From the NCBI GenBank assembly GCA_029856155.1, contig JAHQWL010000052.1, forward strand, positions 96,001-160,000: a stretch of DNA of 64,000 nt. The letters are read 5' to 3'. Origin of the DNA: Promethearchaeia archaeon. Its GTDB lineage: Archaea; Asgardarchaeota; Lokiarchaeia; Sigyniarchaeales; SOKP01. The notes under the pieces are model-generated. The model was not told the DNA's origin. It searched no databases and saw only the letters and a program-made list of their open reading frames with translations. The translations under genes were made by a program, and so were the position numbers. Shown here piece by piece: positions 32,330-41,594 of the stretch (positions within the stretch are counted from its first letter, which is position 1; each line of letters starts with the position of its first letter).

Positions 32330-34996
32330 TTGAGTGTCCCTTTAAGATCTTATTTCATTGTTTTTGATAGAAATCGTGATCATAGAAAAGAATTGCTTTT
32401 TAATGTAAATTTCTTTTACCTTAAATCATTTAAGAAAAAAAGATTCAAATTTACATATGTAAATGAGCCATTCTTTAGGGGAACCGTAATATTTGGGTTA
32501 GATTTTAAAAATAAAATGAGGCCGCTCAATTTCAATAAAATAGAGAAAGATGGAAGTATTCAGCCAATTAATCCACATTTACTACGGAAATTTATTTTAT
32601 CAAATGAAAACAAATTTATTGCTTTTTCAAGTCAAACTTCATCTGAGGATATCCTACCAGTAAGAGAGATGTTAAAAAGTTTACAATTTGATGCAGAAAA
32701 TATAGTTAATTTGACTTTATGTAATTCTTGTTTGGATAAAAATAAATTTACTTTAATTAATCAAAATCTTCAAATTAAATCATATAAAAATCAAATAATT
32801 TGTTCTGAATGTGCTTTTGATATCGTATTAAATAGAATTAAGTTAACAGGTTTAATTTCTCAAGAAAAAATCAGTCCTAAATTAAAAAATTTTTTCATGC
32901 ATTTATTACACAAATTTAGAGATATTAGAAAGGTATTGGAGGCTTTTAAAGCAGATTTTAATCCAGTAATCAATAGAGATATAACTCTTTATGATATTGA
33001 AAAAACACCTTCAATTAGTAAAAAATATCTTAATCAAAAAATAGAAAATCTGGATATTCATCCCGCATTAAAAAAAGTATTGAAAGGATTAAGCTTATTA
33101 ACTTTATTACCAATCCAAGCAATATCAATTGAAAAAGGTCTATTAACAGAACGTAATAATCAATTAATTATGGCCCCTACTTCTGGTGGAAAAACTCTTG
33201 TAGGAGAATTGACGGGGATTTCAAGAGTGTTAAATGACAGAAAAGCTAAAATGCTATATTTAGTCCCTATTGTTGCCTTAGCTAATATAAGAACGGAAGA
33301 ATTTAAAGAGAAATATAGCCCAATTAAATTAAAAGTCATTAAGAGAATTGGAGAGTCATTATTCGGAAAGAAAGAGGAGGATAATATTGAAGACTTAACT
33401 AAAGCACATGTCATTATTGCAACTTATGAAGCAATTGATTTTATCTTAAGAAGTGGAAATAAAGAGGTTTTAGGAGATATTGGTACAATAGTAATTGATG
33501 AAATTCAAACATTAATCGATCCAGATCGGGGTTTCATATTAGACGGTTTAATAGCTAGGTTAAAAACACAATTTAATTCTCAAATTCTATATTTAAGTGC
33601 AACCTTAGGAGAACCAGAGCATTTAGCACAAAAATTAAAGTGTAAATTAATTAAGTATAATAATCGCCCAGTTCCAGTTGAACGTCATCTATTATTATGC
33701 TTAAATGAAGCTCAAAAACAAAAATATATTTCTAAATTAATAAAAGCTGAATTTTCTATAAAATCGATATATGGTTTTAAAGGCCAAACGATAGTTTTTA
33801 CAAATACTCGAAAAAAGTGTGAATCAATATCATCCTATTTACAGCAAAAAGGTATCAATGTAGCATCCTATCATTCAGGACTAACAAATGAAGAGAGAAA
33901 GATTATTGAAAAAGAATTTCAATCTCAAAAAATAATGGGGGTCGTTGCAACAGCAGCGTTAGCAGCAGGAGTAGACCTTCCCGCTCGTCAGGTGATTTTT
34001 GAATCTTTATCTATGGGTATAAAGTGGTTATCTGTTGCAGAATTCGAACAGATGCTTGGAAGAGCAGGAAGATTAAAAAAACATGAAAAAGGATTAGCTT
34101 ATATACTTATTGAACCCGGAAAGATTTATTCTCCTAAAATGAAAATTACTGAAGAAAATATAGCCATAAAATTATTAAATGGTAAAATTAAAGATTATGA
34201 GCTCAATCCTGACGAAAATAAATCTCAAACCGAAATTCTTGCATTTATTTCCATGTTTAATCAACGGATTACAAAAGGACAAATTTTTGAATTTTATAAA
34301 CATCTAATTAATGATTATTTCAATTTGGAAGAAATTTTGAAGAAATTAATTTCTTTTAATTTGATAGGAATAAAGGAAAATTTAACTCTCAAGGCTACTC
34401 GTTTAGGTATGTCAATTGCTAAGTCTTTTTTAAGTGTTGATGAAAGCCTTGAAATAATTGAAAAATTACAAAATAATTTAGCTACTCCGTTGGATATTGC
34501 TTTAGACTTAGAATTTCTAAGAAATGTGTATTTATCAAAAAATATAGTTGCAGATTTATCTAAGAATATGAATATGAAATATTTTTCAAACAATTTATTC
34601 AGCGCCAGTGTGTTATCTTTAATGAATGCTGATTATGTTAAGAAAAGAAAAACGTTCTCACGTGATTTTATTGATTTTATAATGAAATTAACAAGCGATA
34701 TATTTAATTGTAACTGCAAAGATAATCCTTATTGTGATTGCGGGCGTTTAAATCTGGAAAAATTAATAGTTAATCTACGTATTAAAGAAGACATGACAAT
34801 TGAAGAAATCTCTAATTATTTGATTGAAGAATATAAGATATTAGTTTTTAAAGGAGATCTTATTGATTATTTAGAGAATTTAATCTATAGTCTAGAAAGC
34901 ATTAAAAATATTGCAGAAGGACTATCTAATTTAAATAAAAACTATGTAAGGGAGATTGAGGAAATTCCATACTTAATAGAACGGATAAAGTATTAG
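32330..34996 (+). CDS. Archaeal Ski2-like DExx-box helicase (COG1202/DUF5814-type)
   Basis: LLPIQ, APTSGGKT, DEIQ, SAT, YHSGL, QMLGRAGR; N-terminal Cys pairs and C-terminal CNCKDNPYCDCG. Confidence 0.9.
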   Translation: MSVPLRSYFIVFDRNRDHRKELLFNVNFFYLKSFKKKRFKFTYVNEPFFRGTVIFGLDFKNKMRPLNFNKIEKDGSIQPINPHLLRKFILSNENKFIAFSSQTSSEDILPVREMLKSLQFDAENIVNLTLCNSCLDKNKFTLINQNLQIKSYKNQIICSECAFDIVLNRIKLTGLISQEKISPKLKNFFMHLLHKFRDIRKVLEAFKADFNPVINRDITLYDIEKTPSISKKYLNQKIENLDIHPALKKVLKGLSLLTLLPIQAISIEKGLLTERNNQLIMAPTSGGKTLVGELTGISRVLNDRKAKMLYLVPIVALANIRTEEFKEKYSPIKLKVIKRIGESLFGKKEEDNIEDLTKAHVIIATYEAIDFILRSGNKEVLGDIGTIVIDEIQTLIDPDRGFILDGLIARLKTQFNSQILYLSATLGEPEHLAQKLKCKLIKYNNRPVPVERHLLLCLNEAQKQKYISKLIKAEFSIKSIYGFKGQTIVFTNTRKKCESISSYLQQKGINVASYHSGLTNEERKIIEKEFQSQKIMGVVATAALAAGVDLPARQVIFESLSMGIKWLSVAEFEQMLGRAGRLKKHEKGLAYILIEPGKIYSPKMKITEENIAIKLLNGKIKDYELNPDENKSQTEILAFISMFNQRITKGQIFEFYKHLINDYFNLEEILKKLISFNLIGIKENLTLKATRLGMSIAKSFLSVDESLEIIEKLQNNLATPLDIALDLEFLRNVYLSKNIVADLSKNMNMKYFSNNLFSASVLSLMNADYVKKRKTFSRDFIDFIMKLTSDIFNCNCKDNPYCDCGRLNLEKLIVNLRIKEDMTIEEISNYLIEEYKILVFKGDLIDYLENLIYSLESIKNIAEGLSNLNKNYVREIEEIPYLIERIKY

Positions 34997-36186
34997 GTTA
35001 AGTGAATTTCTACTATATCCATGTCCTTTAAAATATAATCTAAACCAACCTTTTTACGCTTTTGACGTTCACCTTCTCGTATAATTATAGCATGATCGAA
35101 AGAATCATAAAAACTTCTATGAACTTTTAATGCAACTTCCTTAACGGTAGTGATCTCATCCATTATCAATGGTTGTTCAGCTATAATTCCATTACTCATA
35201 GTATATATCCTAATTTTCTTTAAGAATTTTAATATTATATCACCAAAATCTCTAGGAAAATTCTCTTTTTGATAACTTGTCCCTAAAATTAGAGGAAATC
35301 TATCTGAATACTTGCTTTTTAATTTTTCAAAAATATCTTGAGTATAAGAAAGATCTCCCTTAGTTCCTAGTATTATTACCTTCTTATATACAACAGAGGG
35401 AGTTAAAACGTCTATTACATTATCAAGGGTTATCTCACCATAAATTTTTACAATCCCATTACGAATTCCATTTTCATATACAATTTCTTTTATTTCTTCT
35501 GTTAATTCATCTAATCCTTCAATCCCCTGTGCCTCTTTAGTCAGATAAAGCACTTGAATTTTGTGTGCTCCTGTTTTTTCAATTATTAAAGGTGGGGGTG
35601 ATATATTTATTCGAATATCAGCTCTAGATAATTCATTTAATAATAAATTCATTTGTTCTTCAATATTTCTTGATAGATCTATACAAAAACATAATAAATC
35701 GGCTGCTCGAAGTTGTGATAGGATTTCTTTTCCATTTCCAATCCCATCAGAAGCACCCTCCATGATAGAAGGCATGTCGACGATTTGAAAACGGATTTTT
35801 TGATATTGATAAATTCCAATTTCTGGCAAAGCGGTAAATTTTCCAATTTTCTCTTCTGCGGCTCCAGTTAGTAAATTCAGAAGTGATGTTTTTCCAACTC
35901 CAGGAGTTTGAAAACTGCTGATTAATATCACTTGAATTCCTTCCTTTTTTATTGAGAATGGGCTAATAATTTTTTGTGTAATTTTTTGTTTTTGCTTACG
36001 ATTGTCTAATTCACGCTTCATCTTTGCTAAGCGGGATTTATTAAGCGCAACAATTTTTTCTGTTGCTTTATGTTTAGGAACTAAGGACAAAAATTCCTCC
36101 AATTTTTTGATTCTATCTTCTAAAGCCCCAGCATCTAAATACTCTTGATATTTAGCTTTAGCTTGAGGAGGTAAATTGGAGCTCAA
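34993..36186 (-). CDS. DRG/OBG-family GTPase with TGS domain (divergent)
   Basis: PKHKATE N-terminus, PGVGKTS, QIVDMP, C-terminal KVGLDYILKDMDIVEIH. Confidence 0.85.
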   Translation of the reverse strand: MSSNLPPQAKAKYQEYLDAGALEDRIKKLEEFLSLVPKHKATEKIVALNKSRLAKMKRELDNRKQKQKITQKIISPFSIKKEGIQVILISSFQTPGVGKTSLLNLLTGAAEEKIGKFTALPEIGIYQYQKIRFQIVDMPSIMEGASDGIGNGKEILSQLRAADLLCFCIDLSRNIEEQMNLLLNELSRADIRINISPPPLIIEKTGAHKIQVLYLTKEAQGIEGLDELTEEIKEIVYENGIRNGIVKIYGEITLDNVIDVLTPSVVYKKVIILGTKGDLSYTQDIFEKLKSKYSDRFPLILGTSYQKENFPRDFGDIILKFLKKIRIYTMSNGIIAEQPLIMDEITTVKEVALKVHRSFYDSFDHAIIIREGERQKRKKVGLDYILKDMDIVEIHLT

Positions 36187-36207
36187 ATTAAAATCCTTTT
36201 TTTATAT

Positions 36208-36663
36208 TTAAAATAAAGAACGAAATCTATCTTCTGTTTTAAGTCTTAAATCCCCTAATGTTTCATTAATTCGGCTTTCAAATTGCTTAAAATATTTAGG
36301 TTTTTTCGAAAATATATCATTAAGTGGGTATCGATTGAGAAAATAGGACAAAATTTGATTCAATTGATCTTTTACTATTGATGCATCTGTTCCTTTTTCT
36401 ATTATAGCATATGATAATAAAGGTTGTCTATTATCAGCATTATCATTAGGTAATTGAATCATCTCACAATAGCAAACTAATTTAAAGGAAGCTAAACTGA
36501 TAATTGAAATATCATCTCCAAACACTTCAGTAGTAAAACTTTCAAGTGCTGTTAAAAATCCAGCACGCAAGTTTGAATCTAATAAATTGTCTGAAGATGA
36601 ATAATACTTAATCTCAACTAAATTTCGCATTCCTAAATTAATTCCTACTTCAAGAATTGCCAT
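36208..36663 (-). CDS. Longin-like domain protein
   Basis: LRAGFLTALESFTTEVFG helix and I...FLNRY pattern; 151 aa. Confidence 0.65.
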   Translation of the reverse strand: MAILEVGINLGMRNLVEIKYYSSSDNLLDSNLRAGFLTALESFTTEVFGDDISIISLASFKLVCYCEMIQLPNDNADNRQPLLSYAIIEKGTDASIVKDQLNQILSYFLNRYPLNDIFSKKPKYFKQFESRINETLGDLRLKTEDRFRSLF

Positions 36664-36878: not shown

Positions 36879-37748
36879 TTAAATTTTAGTTAGATTTAAT
36901 TGTTTTTTATAAGCCGTAAAGGTATTTTGTAGTAGAAAGTGAACTGTGAGAGGTCCCACTCCACCGGGAGAAGGTGTTATCGATGAACATTTTTCCAAAA
37001 CATCTTCAAAATCAACATCTCCACATAATTTACCCTCGATTCTGTTTGTACCAACATCGATGATCACAACACCTTCTTTAATTCTTTTTTTTGTTATAAA
37101 TTTTGGTTTGCTTACTGCAACAATCAATATATCCGCATTTTTAATATATCTATCAATATTTTTTGTTGATGTATGGCAAACAGAAACTGTGGCATTCCTT
37201 TTTAATAGTAAAAATATTAGCGGTTTACCTACTAAATTTGATCTATTTATAATGACAATATCTTTCCCTCTAAGTTCTATATTGTAATTTTCTAAAAGTG
37301 CTATTATTCCTTTAGGAGTACAGGGAGCTAATTCTTCATTGTAATCAAATAGTTTTCCCCTATTAATTGGATTTAAACCATCTACATCTTTTAAGGGTGA
37401 TATTTTCTCTTGAAACTCAGCTGTAGCATCTTTTAATTTTTCTGGAAGCGGGATTTGTAATAAAATACCATGAATATTAGAATCTTTGTTGAGTTTATCG
37501 ATTTCATATAGAAGTTCTTGCTTTGAAATATCTTCTTTTAACTCAACAATAATAGAATCAATACCTACTTCTTTGCATGTTTTATGTTTAATGTTAACAT
37601 AAACTTGAGAGGAGGGATCATTTCCCACAAGTATAGTAGCTAATTTTGGCCGCTTTCCCGTTTTTATTATCGCTTTTTTAATTTGCTCTTTTAATTCTGA
37701 ATTTAATTTTTCTGCTAATATTTTTCCATCTAAGATTTTAGTATTCAT
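36879..37748 (-). CDS. folD: Methylene-THF dehydrogenase/cyclohydrolase
   Basis: ILDGK, YVNIK, KDVDG, PCTPKG, RSNLVGKP, IDVG, GDVDF, PGGVGP. Confidence 0.96.
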   Translation of the reverse strand: MNTKILDGKILAEKLNSELKEQIKKAIIKTGKRPKLATILVGNDPSSQVYVNIKHKTCKEVGIDSIIVELKEDISKQELLYEIDKLNKDSNIHGILLQIPLPEKLKDATAEFQEKISPLKDVDGLNPINRGKLFDYNEELAPCTPKGIIALLENYNIELRGKDIVIINRSNLVGKPLIFLLLKRNATVSVCHTSTKNIDRYIKNADILIVAVSKPKFITKKRIKEGVVIIDVGTNRIEGKLCGDVDFEDVLEKCSSITPSPGGVGPLTVHFLLQNTFTAYKKQLNLTKI

Positions 37749-37829: not shown

Positions 37830-38930
37830 TTATATTCTTGTTCTTCTCCAAAGAAAGATAGCTACTATAATAACTAATCCAATAGAACCAAAAACTATTC
37901 CTAAGATCCAGTAATTAAATTCTACCATCCAAATTTCACTGTAGAGACTAGACAAAGAATCTAATATTCTTAATGTCTCAAATGCATAATAACTAACCAC
38001 AACTGAGGAGCTTTTCTGTTGATATCCTTCAGTGTTCTCTGCAAATCCACCATCTATAAAATTTTGATGTGTTAGTACCCAAGTTTTTATAAGACCTTTA
38101 AATAATTTGGTACTATCAATTATAGAAACTGCTTTTACACAATAATATGTGCTGCTCAACAAGGCAATTTGAGCATAATCATCTGGCAAATATCCTCCAT
38201 AATTATTAAGATCTGCAGAATTTATAACATATAAAGATTGGAGATACCCTATTGTTTTAATAACACTATTTAACGCTTCGATTTCCCCTAATTCCTCTAA
38301 AATAAAAACTGCAAAACAGGTATCTACCATAGTAGAACCAAGACTTTGATTGCTTCCATATCCCCCCTCGCTATTATAACATGAAAGAACCCAATTCTTA
38401 TGTATTGATATATTTTCTAATGGTTTTTCTATTAATGAAAAAAGTTGAATACTGTAATAAGTTGAAGCTAAACTAACTAATTTGGTAGTATTTGAATAAG
38501 AAAATCCACCTGTTATTTGTTCAGTATCATTTAGATATTTATAAATTTTATTTTCTAAATCAAGATTAATTTCATAATCCTCATCTAAGATATTGAGCGA
38601 TTTCATTAAAAAGAATAAATCATATAAATTTTCTTCATAATTATTAAACATTTCCTCAATATTATCTTCTAAAGTGCTTTTAAGTGTTTCAATATTATGT
38701 GGATTTACTGCAAAATAATTTAATATATCCAAAGCATAAGTTGTTGCTTCAAAAGATATGTCATCACTGCTACCAATAGCATTAGTAAAACCCTCACCTT
38801 CAATTTCATTTTGATATATAAAACTAGTTAAATAATACTGCCGTGTTTTTGCTAACGCACTCGGTATTGCATTTATTGCCAAAAATATTACAATTGTACC
38901 TATGATCAAACTCCGATATTTATGCTTCAA
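37830..38930 (-). CDS. Secreted, membrane-anchored prenyltransferase-beta-like repeat protein
   Basis: Signal peptide (…PSALA); repeats WVLSCYNSEGGYG, GGFS, WVLTHQNFIDGGFA; C-terminal TM followed by RRTRI. Confidence 0.75.
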   Translation of the reverse strand: MKHKYRSLIIGTIVIFLAINAIPSALAKTRQYYLTSFIYQNEIEGEGFTNAIGSSDDISFEATTYALDILNYFAVNPHNIETLKSTLEDNIEEMFNNYEENLYDLFFLMKSLNILDEDYEINLDLENKIYKYLNDTEQITGGFSYSNTTKLVSLASTYYSIQLFSLIEKPLENISIHKNWVLSCYNSEGGYGSNQSLGSTMVDTCFAVFILEELGEIEALNSVIKTIGYLQSLYVINSADLNNYGGYLPDDYAQIALLSSTYYCVKAVSIIDSTKLFKGLIKTWVLTHQNFIDGGFAENTEGYQQKSSSVVVSYYAFETLRILDSLSSLYSEIWMVEFNYWILGIVFGSIGLVIIVAIFLWRRTRI

Positions 38931-39083
38931 ATAATAAAACCTATCTGTTAACTAAAAATTTAATTTTAAAAATATATCTTGAAATTAAAAAGTAACTATA
39001 TATTAAAAGAATTCAAGGGAATATTTCAATTTTATATAATTAAGTAAGAAATACAAATAAAAATCCAAATACTTATTTATTAC

Positions 39084-40598
39084 TTAAAGAATCTCGCTAA
39101 TATCTCTATATAATAGATCCCTATTTGTTTGGAATTGTTCATAAGTAATAAATAACTGTTGGAAAGAAGGTAAACTTCCTAAAATAGCAGCACCTGTAAA
39201 AATAGCAAACTGAAGATTATCGGGTACAAAAAAATTAATTATTTTATTAGCAGATTCCATGAATTCAGAAAATTCTTGAGCAGGTGATTTTTTAGAAATT
39301 GCTTCAGGGATTTCAGTTTTTTCTAAATTTTCCATGGATGCTCCACAATAAGGACAGAAAAGTGAAGATATATCAGTTATTTCCCTCAAACAATTAGGAC
39401 ATTTATCTCTTTTTTTATTATTTTGATTTAATGCTCCAATCTTTATTTCAGGTAATACTAATACCCCACCACACGAAGGGCATAATTTTTTTCCATCATT
39501 TAAGTTTACAAAACTACCACAATGCGGGCAAGTATCTTCTTTCTTTTTTGAGATTTCAACAGCTTGTAATTTAATTAATTCACTTTTCATTGCAGAAAGA
39601 GGTGCGACCGGTTTAGGAATCTTACCTAGTTGAGAAAGGAGTGGATCCAATTCTGATTCAAAGCGTTCTTGAAACCCACTATATGAAAGATTTCCTCCGG
39701 AAAATACTATATGAGATAAAAGATCATGCCAATAGTGATTATCTATTGCTCTTAAACTAGCAATAACTGCTTGAGTTATATTCATTATATTTGTATATCC
39801 TAACATAGCGGGATTAAATAAAACTTCTGGAGCTTGATAGAGGATATAAGTTGGGACGTTGATGCTTGATCCATCAGGCATCGGAACACTAAACATTTCT
39901 CCTGTCGTAGAAGGTTTATTAGGATCCAATACAAAATAGCAATTCTTTTCTTTTATCTCTTGAATGATCTCATCCGCTGCACTTGAAGAAATACTAACAC
40001 CTTCTCTCATTAGGAGACTTTTTAAGTTTTGATTAACATCTACACCTGCTAATGGAAGCTTCTGAACAGCATGTTGGACTATCTGTCCATTAACTATTGG
40101 AACTATCCATGTCAATCCATCTCCACTTTCAATTACTAACCCAGTCGTCAATCCAACGCTAAACATAGATAATAATGGCGTTGGCATCATAATTAAACTT
40201 TTAACTTGATGAGTTTCAAAGAAAAGTCTTGCAATATACTCCTTGGTATCTCTTTGCAGAAAAGGAGATTCACAATAAAAAACAGGATAATTCGATAGAT
40301 TCTCTATTCTAAGCAGTGAATAAAAAATGTAATTTAACACTTCATAGAAACTATCCCAATCCATGATCTCCCCCCTTGCTATCGGGTGTTTTATTTTAAG
40401 AACGCCACGCATTCTAGATACATCATTTCCAACATATATACTTCTAGCACTTACATCAACCATCACAGATTTATATTTTTCAGTTCCAGTAATGCAAGGA
40501 AAAACAAATCTTGGTCCAGGTTCTCCTGAAAATCCTATTTTGACATATGCTGAACCAATATCAATTATAATTGGTGTGCCAGGAAAGGGTAGTGCCAT
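39084..40598 (-). CDS. Actin-related protein with a double zinc-ribbon insertion
   Basis: IIIDIGSAYVKIGFSGE, GLVIESGDG, LAGVDV, EIKEKNCY, PDG, APEVLFNP, VFSGGN, GAAILGSL; insertion containing four CPxC motifs. Confidence 0.93.
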   Translation of the reverse strand: MALPFPGTPIIIDIGSAYVKIGFSGEPGPRFVFPCITGTEKYKSVMVDVSARSIYVGNDVSRMRGVLKIKHPIARGEIMDWDSFYEVLNYIFYSLLRIENLSNYPVFYCESPFLQRDTKEYIARLFFETHQVKSLIMMPTPLLSMFSVGLTTGLVIESGDGLTWIVPIVNGQIVQHAVQKLPLAGVDVNQNLKSLLMREGVSISSSAADEIIQEIKEKNCYFVLDPNKPSTTGEMFSVPMPDGSSINVPTYILYQAPEVLFNPAMLGYTNIMNITQAVIASLRAIDNHYWHDLLSHIVFSGGNLSYSGFQERFESELDPLLSQLGKIPKPVAPLSAMKSELIKLQAVEISKKKEDTCPHCGSFVNLNDGKKLCPSCGGVLVLPEIKIGALNQNNKKRDKCPNCLREITDISSLFCPYCGASMENLEKTEIPEAISKKSPAQEFSEFMESANKIINFFVPDNLQFAIFTGAAILGSLPSFQQLFITYEQFQTNRDLLYRDISEIL

Positions 40599-40700
40599 TT
40601 TCTATCAATATTACAATTTTTTTGGTTTTTCTTATTAATAATCTAAAATTAATGATTGTTATAATTTTTTTATAAAATTAATAAATAAGAATTCTTTTAA

Positions 40701-41126
40701 TTATTTTTGAAAAAATTCAAGAAGAGTTTTTAAGATTCCATTTTGTATAACCAATCCTATTAATTCATTATTTTCATTTACAACTGGAAGTCTTTGAATT
40801 TTTTTGAATATCATTTTCTCTAATACATACTGTAATGTATCATCTTCTTTTACAATAAAAGGTTCTGGTGTCATTAAATCCTTCACAATTGTATTTGGTG
40901 AATTTAAACTCATTGCAAATCTAGCCAAACGTATATCTCTTTGTGTAATAATACCAATAAGTTGTTTATTTTTACGATCTTTCACAACAGGAAGTCCACC
41001 AATATTTTTCCTGACCATCAAAAGTTCAGTGGTACTGATTTTTTCTTTTGGAATAGTAAAAAGTGGATCTTTAATCATAATATCGGAGACTTTTATCTTA
41101 CTTAATTGCGTTAATCGGTCTTCCAT
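40701..41126 (-). CDS. CBS-pair protein
   Basis: KVSDIM, GGLPVV..LIGIITQRDI, VKDLMT, QRLPVV. Confidence 0.9.
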   Translation of the reverse strand: MEDRLTQLSKIKVSDIMIKDPLFTIPKEKISTTELLMVRKNIGGLPVVKDRKNKQLIGIITQRDIRLARFAMSLNSPNTIVKDLMTPEPFIVKEDDTLQYVLEKMIFKKIQRLPVVNENNELIGLVIQNGILKTLLEFFQK

Positions 41127-41216
41127 GTAAAACCCAATATTATATAATTATTTGAAAAGACAAAGTTACTAAGTTCCTTAATGAAAGTAATCAATATTGA
41201 AATTAAAATATATTTA

Positions 41217-41594
41217 TTAGCTGATCTTCATTGCTTCTCCAAGCTTTTTTTCAATTTTTGTTATTTCATTTAGATACTTCTGATAAATCTTTAAGATATA
41301 CAGCCCCCAATCAGTTAATTTTACCCATCCTCCACCCTTAGAACCGCCTTTATGACTTTCGACAGGGTTCATACCCGTTCTTTTTTCTATTCTTTTTAAT
41401 ATATTCCATGCATATTTATAGGAATAATTACATTCTTTTGCTGCTTGAGATAATGAGCCTTCTTTATTTTTATCAATATTTTTTAGCAACTCCGCCCATC
41501 CAGAACCTAATATACTTTTATTCTCAAATTTCAACCAAAATTTTATTCCCAGTTTTATTTTAGGTTTTAATTCTTCAATGTTGGGATTCTCCAT
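41217..41594 (-). CDS. ModE-like winged-helix regulator
   Basis: GSLSQAAKECNYSYKYAW...KGG..GG...LT. Confidence 0.85.
   Translation of the reverse strand: MENPNIEELKPKIKLGIKFWLKFENKSILGSGWAELLKNIDKNKEGSLSQAAKECNYSYKYAWNILKRIEKRTGMNPVESHKGGSKGGGWVKLTDWGLYILKIYQKYLNEITKIEKKLGEAMKIS

Follow-up and report, generated by a model that had tools for sequence, protein, structure and literature searches.

What does an actin do with two zinc ribbons built into its fold? This question is raised by a minus-strand open reading frame (ORF) at 39084..40598 in a 64,000-nucleotide stretch (here, the window) of contig JAHQWL010000052.1 (positions 96,001 to 160,000, forward strand) from the Promethearchaeia archaeon assembly GCA_029856155.1, a 4.1-Mb genome that is 97% complete with a G+C content of ~29%. 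The ORF encodes a protein of 504 amino acids (aa), which we named ARPZ for zinc-ribbon actin-related protein. The original prediction, which was made from the sequence of the window, described it as a non-canonical actin-related protein (ARP) with altered catalytic residues and an insertion carrying two zinc ribbons, and as probably not forming filaments. Here, we ask whether the actin fold and the insertion are genuine, how widely this architecture is distributed, and which place ARPZ may have next to lokiactin. All features of the window described below lie on the minus strand, as does the ARPZ gene.

The actin core and the inserted module

ARPZ is a bona fide actin-fold protein. The Pfam Actin family (PF00022) matches aa 9-323 with an E value of 1.2e-65 and resumes at aa 453-492, with a score of 222 bits against a cut-off of 27. 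In HMMER comparisons with PDB chains, in which actins matched at E values of 1e-62 to 1e-67, ARPZ residues 10-327 correspond to residues 8-327 of yeast actin and residues 454-491 to yeast actin residues 327-364. Yeast actin and lokiactin served as references in place of P0173, an odd actin isoform whose alignment past residue 328 was discarded. An AlphaFold2 model based on an alignment of 123 sequences had a mean predicted local distance difference test (pLDDT) score of 80, and most of the actin core scored above 90. Using the full model in Foldseek, we found that the best 50 matches were all actins with target-normalized template modeling (TM) scores of 0.87-0.91, and these matches include crystal structures of fragmin-bound cardiac actin in the AMPPNP and ADP-Pi states. 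The full actin scaffold that had been claimed is thus present, with a TM score of the model to actin of ~0.90. The N-terminal part of the core (aa 1-326; 39621..40598) comprises subdomains 1, 2, and 4 and most of subdomain 3 and ends after the helix equivalent to actin 309-320. The C-terminal part (aa 454-504 and the stop codon; 39084..39239) resumes at the strand equivalent to actin 327-333 and continues with the groove helices; in this part, P459, N461, Q463, F467, G469, I472, L473, L476, S478, F479, and L482 are nearly invariant.

The segment equivalent to the DNase I-binding loop (D-loop) of actin (aa 40-53, EKYKSVMVDVSARS; 40440..40481) is of full length, as had been noted from the sequence, and resembles the D-loop of lokiactin, with KYKSVMVDV in ARPZ and KYESIMTDV in lokiactin. 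It is among the best-conserved segments of the ARPZ family: in the 123 sequences, K41 and Y42 are invariant, and E40, K43, V45, M46, V47, D48, V49, and R52 are at least 90% conserved. The residues of the hydrophobic groove (F146, G149, T151, G171, I472, L473, L476, F479, and L482) and of the plug core (F261, P263, and G267) are also conserved across the family.

The two parts of the core are separated by an insertion of 127 aa (aa 327-453; 39240..39620), which appears as a gap in the alignments to actins and is located between residues 326 and 327 of yeast actin, where actin has no residues. The insertion site is in the subdomain-3 loop (actin 321-327), after the helix equivalent to actin 309-320 and before the strand equivalent to 327-333, and is flanked by ...ERFESELDPLLSQLGKI on one side and by INFFVP... 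on the other. The insert consists of a linker with a short helix, ribbon 1, a second linker, ribbon 2, and a third linker with a short helix, and its two CxxC-x(11-12)-CxxC ribbons are formed by the motifs CPHC357, CPSC373, CPNC400, and CPYC415. In length, number of CxxC motifs, and flanks, it corresponds to the double-ribbon insert of ~120 aa that had been predicted in this loop. In ribbon 1 (aa 355-378, DTCPHCG..CPSCGG; 39465..39536), C357, C360, G361, C373, and C376 are invariant among 123 homologues, and in ribbon 2 (aa 399-421, KCPNC..FCPYCG; 39336..39404), C400, C403, C415, and C418 are at least 90% conserved. Eight cysteines are present within the insert in 122 of the 123 ARPZ sequences. 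This conservation argues that the CxxC pattern is more than a chance occurrence. The stretch of aa 356-421 matches the Pfam families DZR (PF12773; 29.3 bits, cut-off 27.3) and Zn_ribbon_3 (PF13248; 31 bits, cut-off 27). By profile membership, the insert is a double zinc ribbon that is predicted to bind zinc.

The number of ribbons varies within the family. Most members have two, and those of a Sigynarchaeum-like clade and of “Candidatus Lokiarchaeum ossiferum” have one; specifically, ribbon 2 is missing from P0126, L067, L069, L070, and the L. ossiferum locus L091. The lone ribbon of single-ribbon members always aligns with ribbon 1, which, judged from the alignment, is ancestral and is the invariant portion of the insert. 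In the AlphaFold2 model, pLDDT scores drop below 50 at residues 333-350, 383-397, and 423-450, and both ribbons score 65-76; when the insert was folded alone, the predicted TM score (pTM) was 0.30 and ribbon 1 had pLDDT scores of 80-85. As modeled, the insert resembles a pair of separate knuckles on flexible tethers rather than a compact domain docked on the core, and the low-confidence linkers are probably flexible. Using the insert alone, Foldseek returned no match at an E value of ≤0.001; the best rows (TFS4, TMEM55B, ribosomal proteins, RanBP2 fingers, and ArnA) are non-significant, derive from the model with a pTM of 0.30, and do not constitute evidence. A search of the ESM Atlas for look-alikes of the insert gave no usable match.

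An insertion of this type could in principle arise from an assembly chimera, from a frameshifted fusion of two genes, or in a decaying pseudogene. We found nothing in favor of such an artefact, and it is hardly credible in view of the following observations. Logan contigs of three other studies (four runs), which derive from marine and salt-marsh sediments, cover 38700-41200 without insertions or deletions, and both insert junctions are bridged by X4 record 11 (39181-39664) and X7 record 26 (39077-39717). The reading frame is uninterrupted and includes the invariant cysteines. In a word-indexed search of 5.8 billion proteins, we identified >120 full-length homologues of 502-510 aa with 63-96% identity, all of which have Actin and DZR matches. 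An exhaustive HMMER search of representatives clustered at 50% identity extended the family to members with 39% identity, in which a ribbon is still present at the same site; across the family, full-length homologues with this architecture range from 37 to 96% identity. Finally, the same architecture, with no internal stops, is encoded in 125 of 130 genomes of the order. Thus, a chimera, for which the absence of the insert from reads or close relatives had been proposed as the sign, is contradicted by its presence in both.

An order-wide actin paralogue

To map the distribution of ARPZ, we scanned 332 genomes of the phylum with a completeness of 80% or more, using an E value of ≤1e-75 as the threshold. 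The gene was detected in 115 of the 117 genomes of its own family (f1), in 8 of 11 genomes of the sister family f3, and in both genomes of family f4. These three families belong to one order, and, with one exception, each genome has a single copy. The same query at the same threshold detected the gene in none of the seven genomes from other families of the class and in none of all other families of the phylum (~200 genomes in total). We conclude that, in Loki-type Asgard archaea, ARPZ is a separate paralogue that is present in single copy throughout one order. The loci include those of “Ca. Sigynarchaeum springense,” “Ca. Harpocratesius repetitus,” and Promethearchaeum sp. (Promethearchaeota/Promethearchaeia metagenome-assembled genomes). 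Some loci carry Hod-, Thor-, Hermod-, or Bathyarchaeota labels, which we read as binning or naming noise because synteny is coherent.

The source genome contains five actin-family genes, i.e., the lokiactins L001 and L002, the 373-aa ARP L003, ARPZ, and a divergent 398-aa ARP, L005. In a quick IQ-TREE analysis (LG+G4 as the single model, 75 rows, insert columns removed by a 50% fill filter), all ribbon-bearing proteins formed one clade with a Shimodaira-Hasegawa-like approximate likelihood ratio test (SH-aLRT) support of 100. The lokiactins formed a separate clade (SH-aLRT 98), and the clade containing eukaryotic actin, of which one member is whale cardiac actin, was also separate from ARPZ (SH-aLRT 99). 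This placement of ARPZ in a clade of its own, outside lokiactins and eukaryotic actin, together with the replacement of the residue equivalent to actin Q137 in every member examined (see below), supports the earlier description of ARPZ as a non-canonical ARP.

Lokiactin (L001:1474-2616 and L002) and ARPZ have the same fold, belong to the same Pfam family, and are ~35-38% identical in the core. They share the D-loop pattern KY-S-[VI]-M-x-DV, the phosphate loops, and the equivalents of K213/E214 and G301/G302, and the best PDB sequence match of ARPZ is “HC1 actin” (9wc4; E value of 1.2e-67), a relative of lokiactin. Unlike ARPZ, lokiactin has no insert, retains Q137, H161, H73, and D154, and falls into a separate clade. 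Between the source genome and L. ossiferum, lokiactin is 91% identical, and ARPZ is 40% identical. We note that the second lokiactin gene (L002:1498-2697, minus strand; in G000:C26) has an N-terminus that is intact and in frame (…AIVIDNGTGISKNGF…). Between AIVIDNGTGISKNGF and the stop codon that precedes it, none of the codons ATG, GTG, and TTG occurs, and the first standard start codon, a GTG, would remove the phosphate-1 loop. This gene may, therefore, either use a non-standard start codon or be truncated at its N-terminus.

We located the genome of the cultured L. ossiferum (G016) using the published quantitative PCR (qPCR) primer for lokiactin. Its ARPZ match is 40% identical over residues 10-496, and the published primer 361F of GenBank UYP44711.1 matches inside this gene, which identifies the L. 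ossiferum member as UYP44711.1. This protein has the insert at the same site as ARPZ, and its gene lies between a helix-turn-helix (HTH) gene and a Prenyltrans-like gene, as in the source genome. It differs from ARPZ in having one ribbon, a long acidic linker, a His at the H161 position, and a Gln at the Ser14 position. Rodrigues-Oliveira et al. (2022) quantified transcripts of the L. ossiferum actin homologues, including UYP44711.1, by reverse transcription-qPCR; lokiactin transcripts were several-fold higher, and in the available part of that article, UYP44711.1 is treated only as one of three “ARPs” in the tree and the qPCR panel (PMC9834061). The zinc-ribbon insert is not mentioned for UYP44711.1 in the available part of this article, the only one found to name the protein (PMC9834061), or in the available part of a 2024 review. 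Our literature search, from which subscription journals are mostly absent, did not turn up any account of an Asgard ARP with inserted zinc ribbons. Based on these findings, ARPZ is an actin-related protein with a previously undescribed inserted module.

Among the best 60 PDB sequence matches and the best 50 Foldseek matches of ARPZ, all are actins and none is an Arp. Eukaryotic Arps (the Arp2/3 subunits, Arp1, and nuclear Arp4/5/8) retain the actin fold, and their functions are specialized by insertions and altered nucleotide handling. They share with ARPZ the textbook principle of an actin fold with a loop insertion and altered nucleotide handling. A zinc-ribbon insert is not known to us from any eukaryotic Arp.

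In the tree, the neighbor of ARPZ is the clade of the ARPs L003 and UYP44126.1, with weak support (SH-aLRT 80). L003 (L003:1489-2607, plus strand; G000:C76:2609-3727) is a second order-specific ARP of 373 aa and is the orthologue of L. ossiferum UYP44126.1. It lacks the insert and has a different genomic location. This type of ARP is co-distributed with ARPZ in f1 (108 of 117 genomes) and f3 (10 of 11) and, at the cut-off used, went undetected in f4. A speculative reading, to which we assign a very low probability, is that ARPZ and this sister ARP were duplicated in the ancestor of the order and form a two-ARP module that would seed or terminate lokiactin filaments at defined sites, with the ribbons fixing the module to a partner in the membrane or envelope, e.g., the surface protein encoded next to ARPZ (see below). 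By analogy, such a module might correspond in function to the Arp2-Arp3 pair or to a complex that anchors barbed ends. If so, site-specific actin nucleation or anchoring would have been invented independently in the closest relatives of eukaryotes.

Genome G073, which is from the same genus as the source genome, has an extra ARPZ-like gene (L095:2473-3630, minus strand; G073:C37:23975-25129) encoding a 385-aa protein that is 48% identical to ARPZ. This paralogue has ~12 residues in place of the zinc-ribbon insert, and its D-loop is shortened and devoid of the VMV motif. It is nested inside the ARPZ clade and has no orthologue among 153 other genomes of the order; for these reasons, we interpret it as having lost the insert secondarily. 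The gene is convergent to a 379-aa gene, the product of which has an N-terminus that is small-GTPase-like by eye.

Nucleotide site, filament faces, and a possible place on lokiactin

In actin, the positioning of the attacking water and the gating of phosphate release depend on Q137, H161, H73, and R177/D179. In the alignment, Q137 is replaced by T140 (codon at 40179..40181), H161 by W164 (40107..40109), H73 by R75 (40374..40376), and D154 by E157, and ARPZ, thus, lacks the residues Q137, H161, and H73 that define a conventional actin with respect to catalysis and phosphate release. Among the 123 members, the Q137 equivalent is Thr in 114, Ser in 8, Ala in 1, and Gln in none. The H73 equivalent is Arg in all 123, and the H161 equivalent is Trp in 118 and Thr, Phe, Tyr, or His in distant members. 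Hence, the three substitutions that had been predicted at Q137, H161, and H73 are all present in ARPZ itself, but the change at H161 does not extend to the whole family. The equivalents of D11, G13, K18, G156, G158, K213, E214, G301, and G302 are invariant in the 123 sequences. Because these phosphate- and adenosine-contacting residues are invariant, ARPZ is expected still to bind nucleotide, and because Q137, H73, D154, and mostly H161 are replaced, it probably hydrolyzes ATP and releases phosphate slowly or not at all. We infer that ARPZ binds ATP with slow or absent hydrolysis.

Sets of residues that make longitudinal contacts in filamentous actin (F-actin) were compared between ARPZ and lokiactin; these contact sets are approximate. 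In the pointed-face set, ARPZ is 48% identical to lokiactin, with a conservation of 0.84 within the family; the corresponding values are 25% and 0.75 for the barbed-face set and 35% and 0.77 for the whole core. A subunit whose pointed face is functional and whose barbed face is altered would be located at the barbed end of a filament. The comparison, thus, leans weakly toward ARPZ as a barbed-end terminal subunit.

The reading that we favor, with a probability of roughly 45%, is that ARPZ is an ATP-state, non-treadmilling accessory subunit that docks on lokiactin via its pointed face and presents the tethered ribbons as an adaptor. ARPZ would bind nucleotide and barely hydrolyze it, making it a long-lived ATP-state subunit and not a treadmilling monomer. 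The conserved, lokiactin-like D-loop and pointed face would then dock into the barbed-end groove of lokiactin, which would be the abundant filament former and is encoded twice in the source genome. The barbed face of ARPZ, which has diverged from that of lokiactin, would carry the insert, and we propose that ARPZ for this reason would be a terminal or accessory subunit, i.e., a cap or anchor, and would not form bulk polymer. The tethered zinc ribbons would serve as a protein-binding adaptor joining the lokiactin-bound subunit to another component of the cell.

Several observations weigh against this proposal. The asymmetry between the pointed and the barbed face is not significant (Fisher P = 0.07, with approximate contact sets). 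The groove residues are conserved in the family, and the barbed face could, therefore, still accept a subunit. In distant members, the Ser14 position is occupied by Glu or Gln, suggesting that nucleotide binding may not be uniform across the family, and H161 is kept in L. ossiferum and in the Sigynarchaeum-like clade. Also, the insert-less G073 paralogue has lost the lokiactin-like D-loop together with the insert, which links the two features and does not indicate a mechanism.

Alternatively, ARPZ may polymerize, by itself or along lokiactin filaments, into stable, slowly hydrolyzing filaments displaying the ribbons as sites for cargo or cross-linking, comparable to Arp1 minifilaments or to the filaments of bacterial actin-like segregation systems. 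We consider this rather unlikely. The D-loop is of full length and nearly invariant, the groove and plug core are conserved, and the insert, which is on long low-confidence linkers, could leave the filament surface. In F-actin, K326 and K328 are surface-exposed, and the insertion point lies beside them. Some members are called “centractin” by the Joint Genome Institute (JGI), which is an automatic label only. Conversely, the barbed-face residues are those that have diverged most from lokiactin (25% identity), with Y169 replaced by Gln, Glu, Thr, or Lys, R147 by Leu, and R290 by Trp. The actin 322-325 loop takes part in longitudinal F-actin contacts, and it is this loop that bears the insert. 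Finally, the L. ossiferum transcripts are well below those of lokiactin (PMC9834061), which fits an accessory protein better. The description of ARPZ as a probably non-filament-forming adaptor, cap, or nucleator is, thus, neither shown nor excluded: the D-loop, groove, and plug core are conserved, and the insert could project outward and leave assembly unobstructed.

ARPZ is almost universal in the order of the cultured L. ossiferum, and its design, with an actin fold in which Gln137 is replaced in all members and His161 in most and a putative tethered zinc-ribbon adaptor, is new to the literature searched. ARPZ is, therefore, a clonable candidate for capping, anchoring, or connecting the archaeal actin network. 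If ARPZ docks on lokiactin, the specialization of actins as regulatory subunits, following the logic of Arp2/3 and dynactin, would also have arisen independently in an Asgard order. If it forms only self-contained filaments or has an unrelated role, it would still represent a new domain architecture in a well-studied superfamily.

The conserved gene neighborhood

ARPZ is part of a same-strand block in the order gene for a ModE-N-like winged-helix protein, gene for a CBS-pair protein (in part of f1), ARPZ, gene for a Prenyltrans-repeat membrane protein, and folD. In a tblastn comparison of 80 loci, all f1 loci of sufficient length retained the block. The core of the block is also kept where ARPZ is only 34-45% identical, including L. 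ossiferum, and the distant locus L067 has ARPZ without it. The winged-helix protein (125 aa; 41217..41594) matches NCBIfam TIGR00637 with an E value of 2e-17, which is below the cut-off, and Pfam HTH_1 weakly; this ModE-like HTH gene is located upstream of ARPZ in f1 and in L010, L073-L076, and L091. The CBS-pair protein (141 aa; 40701..41126; Pfam CBS, E value of 1e-26) is encoded between the HTH gene and ARPZ and is absent from many f1 loci and from all distant loci. Directly downstream of ARPZ, in nearly all loci, is the gene for the membrane protein (366 aa; 37830..38930; PF00432, E value of 1.1e-14), which has a signal peptide, a Prenyltrans alpha/alpha-toroid ectodomain, one C-terminal transmembrane helix, and a 6-residue basic tail, WRRTRI. 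Across the order, this tail is conserved as 5-8 residues with the C-terminal pattern [WYK]-[RK]-[RK]-x-[RK]-[IL]. FolD (36879..37748; identified by its ORF and by the Pfam THF_DHG_CYH match of the L006 orthologue) is the last gene of the conserved block and stays downstream in L065 and L073-L076.

The constancy of this neighborhood brings up a role for ARPZ in tying lokiactin filaments to the cell envelope, in which the ribbons would bind the basic tail of the Prenyltrans-repeat membrane protein. The gene for the membrane protein adjoins ARPZ in nearly every locus, even where ARPZ is 34-45% and the membrane protein 23-32% identical (the distant loci L010, L065, L069-L071, L073-L076, and L091), and the short basic tail pattern is kept across the order. 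We nevertheless regard such a link as unlikely. The adjacency is part of a larger block with FolD and the ModE-like regulator, gene order need not mean interaction, and, as FolD belongs to this block too, the synteny argues only modestly for physical contact. The 153-bp gap between ARPZ and the membrane-protein gene is AT-rich and has a T-run behind the ARPZ stop codon, suggesting that the two genes are transcribed separately. A basic tail of 6 residues is also predicted by the positive-inside rule, and in L067, ARPZ does not have the membrane-protein gene as a neighbor.

Upstream of ARPZ, 50 orthologous loci have a TATA-like box and a TGAT Shine-Dalgarno-like element, and no conserved palindromic boxes were found in these loci. 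A scan for sigma-70 promoters and terminators, which is unsuited to archaea, gave fewer promoter-like sites than in shuffled sequences and no terminator-like sites. The AT-rich flanks, the TATA-like box, the TGAT element, and the T-run suggest that the ARPZ gene has a promoter of its own.

The winged-helix gene also bears on the idea that ARPZ is a DNA- or chromatin-associated ARP, like the nuclear Arps or ParM with its DNA adaptor, and that the ribbons bind nucleic acid, maybe together with the ModE-like protein. Zinc ribbons are common in nucleic acid-binding proteins, this small gene is conserved directly upstream, and there are weak, non-significant Foldseek and NCBIfam matches to TFS4, ribosomal, and RNA polymerase ribbons. 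On balance, we find the idea highly improbable: the insert is near-neutral (median net charge +2, range −29 to +11), with linkers that are acidic in distant members, no conserved palindromes were found upstream of ARPZ, and the genome holds ~26 DZR-like matches.

We also inspected the C-terminus of the membrane protein as a candidate sortase-type sorting signal shared with other proteins. Across the order, the protein keeps a juxtamembrane motif, which reads E-I/V-W/F-M-V-E-F-N-Y/F in f1 and occurs in no other ORF of the genome, and the [RK]-[IL] end of the tail; the rest of the protein falls to 23-30% identity. Only seven ORFs of the genome end in a transmembrane helix followed by a basic tail, and none of these has the MVEFNY motif. 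As there was no match to an NCBIfam CTERM model and MVEFNY is not shared, we rejected a shared sorting signal; the C-terminal anchor may still be cleaved.

In the distant relative L008 (L008:1-2181), two genes, one for a protein with MIT, AAA, and Vps4_C domains and the other for a protein with a domain of endosomal sorting complex required for transport (ESCRT)-II, are located ~4 kb upstream of the ARPZ homologue; this single sighting of ESCRT-type genes is probably coincidental. In the window, the region downstream of FolD (34993-36663) encodes a protein of 151 aa that matches no Pfam family and, after it, one of 397 aa, the L006 orthologue of which has MMR_HSR1 GTPase and TGS domains, and this pair of genes is conserved in f1 only.

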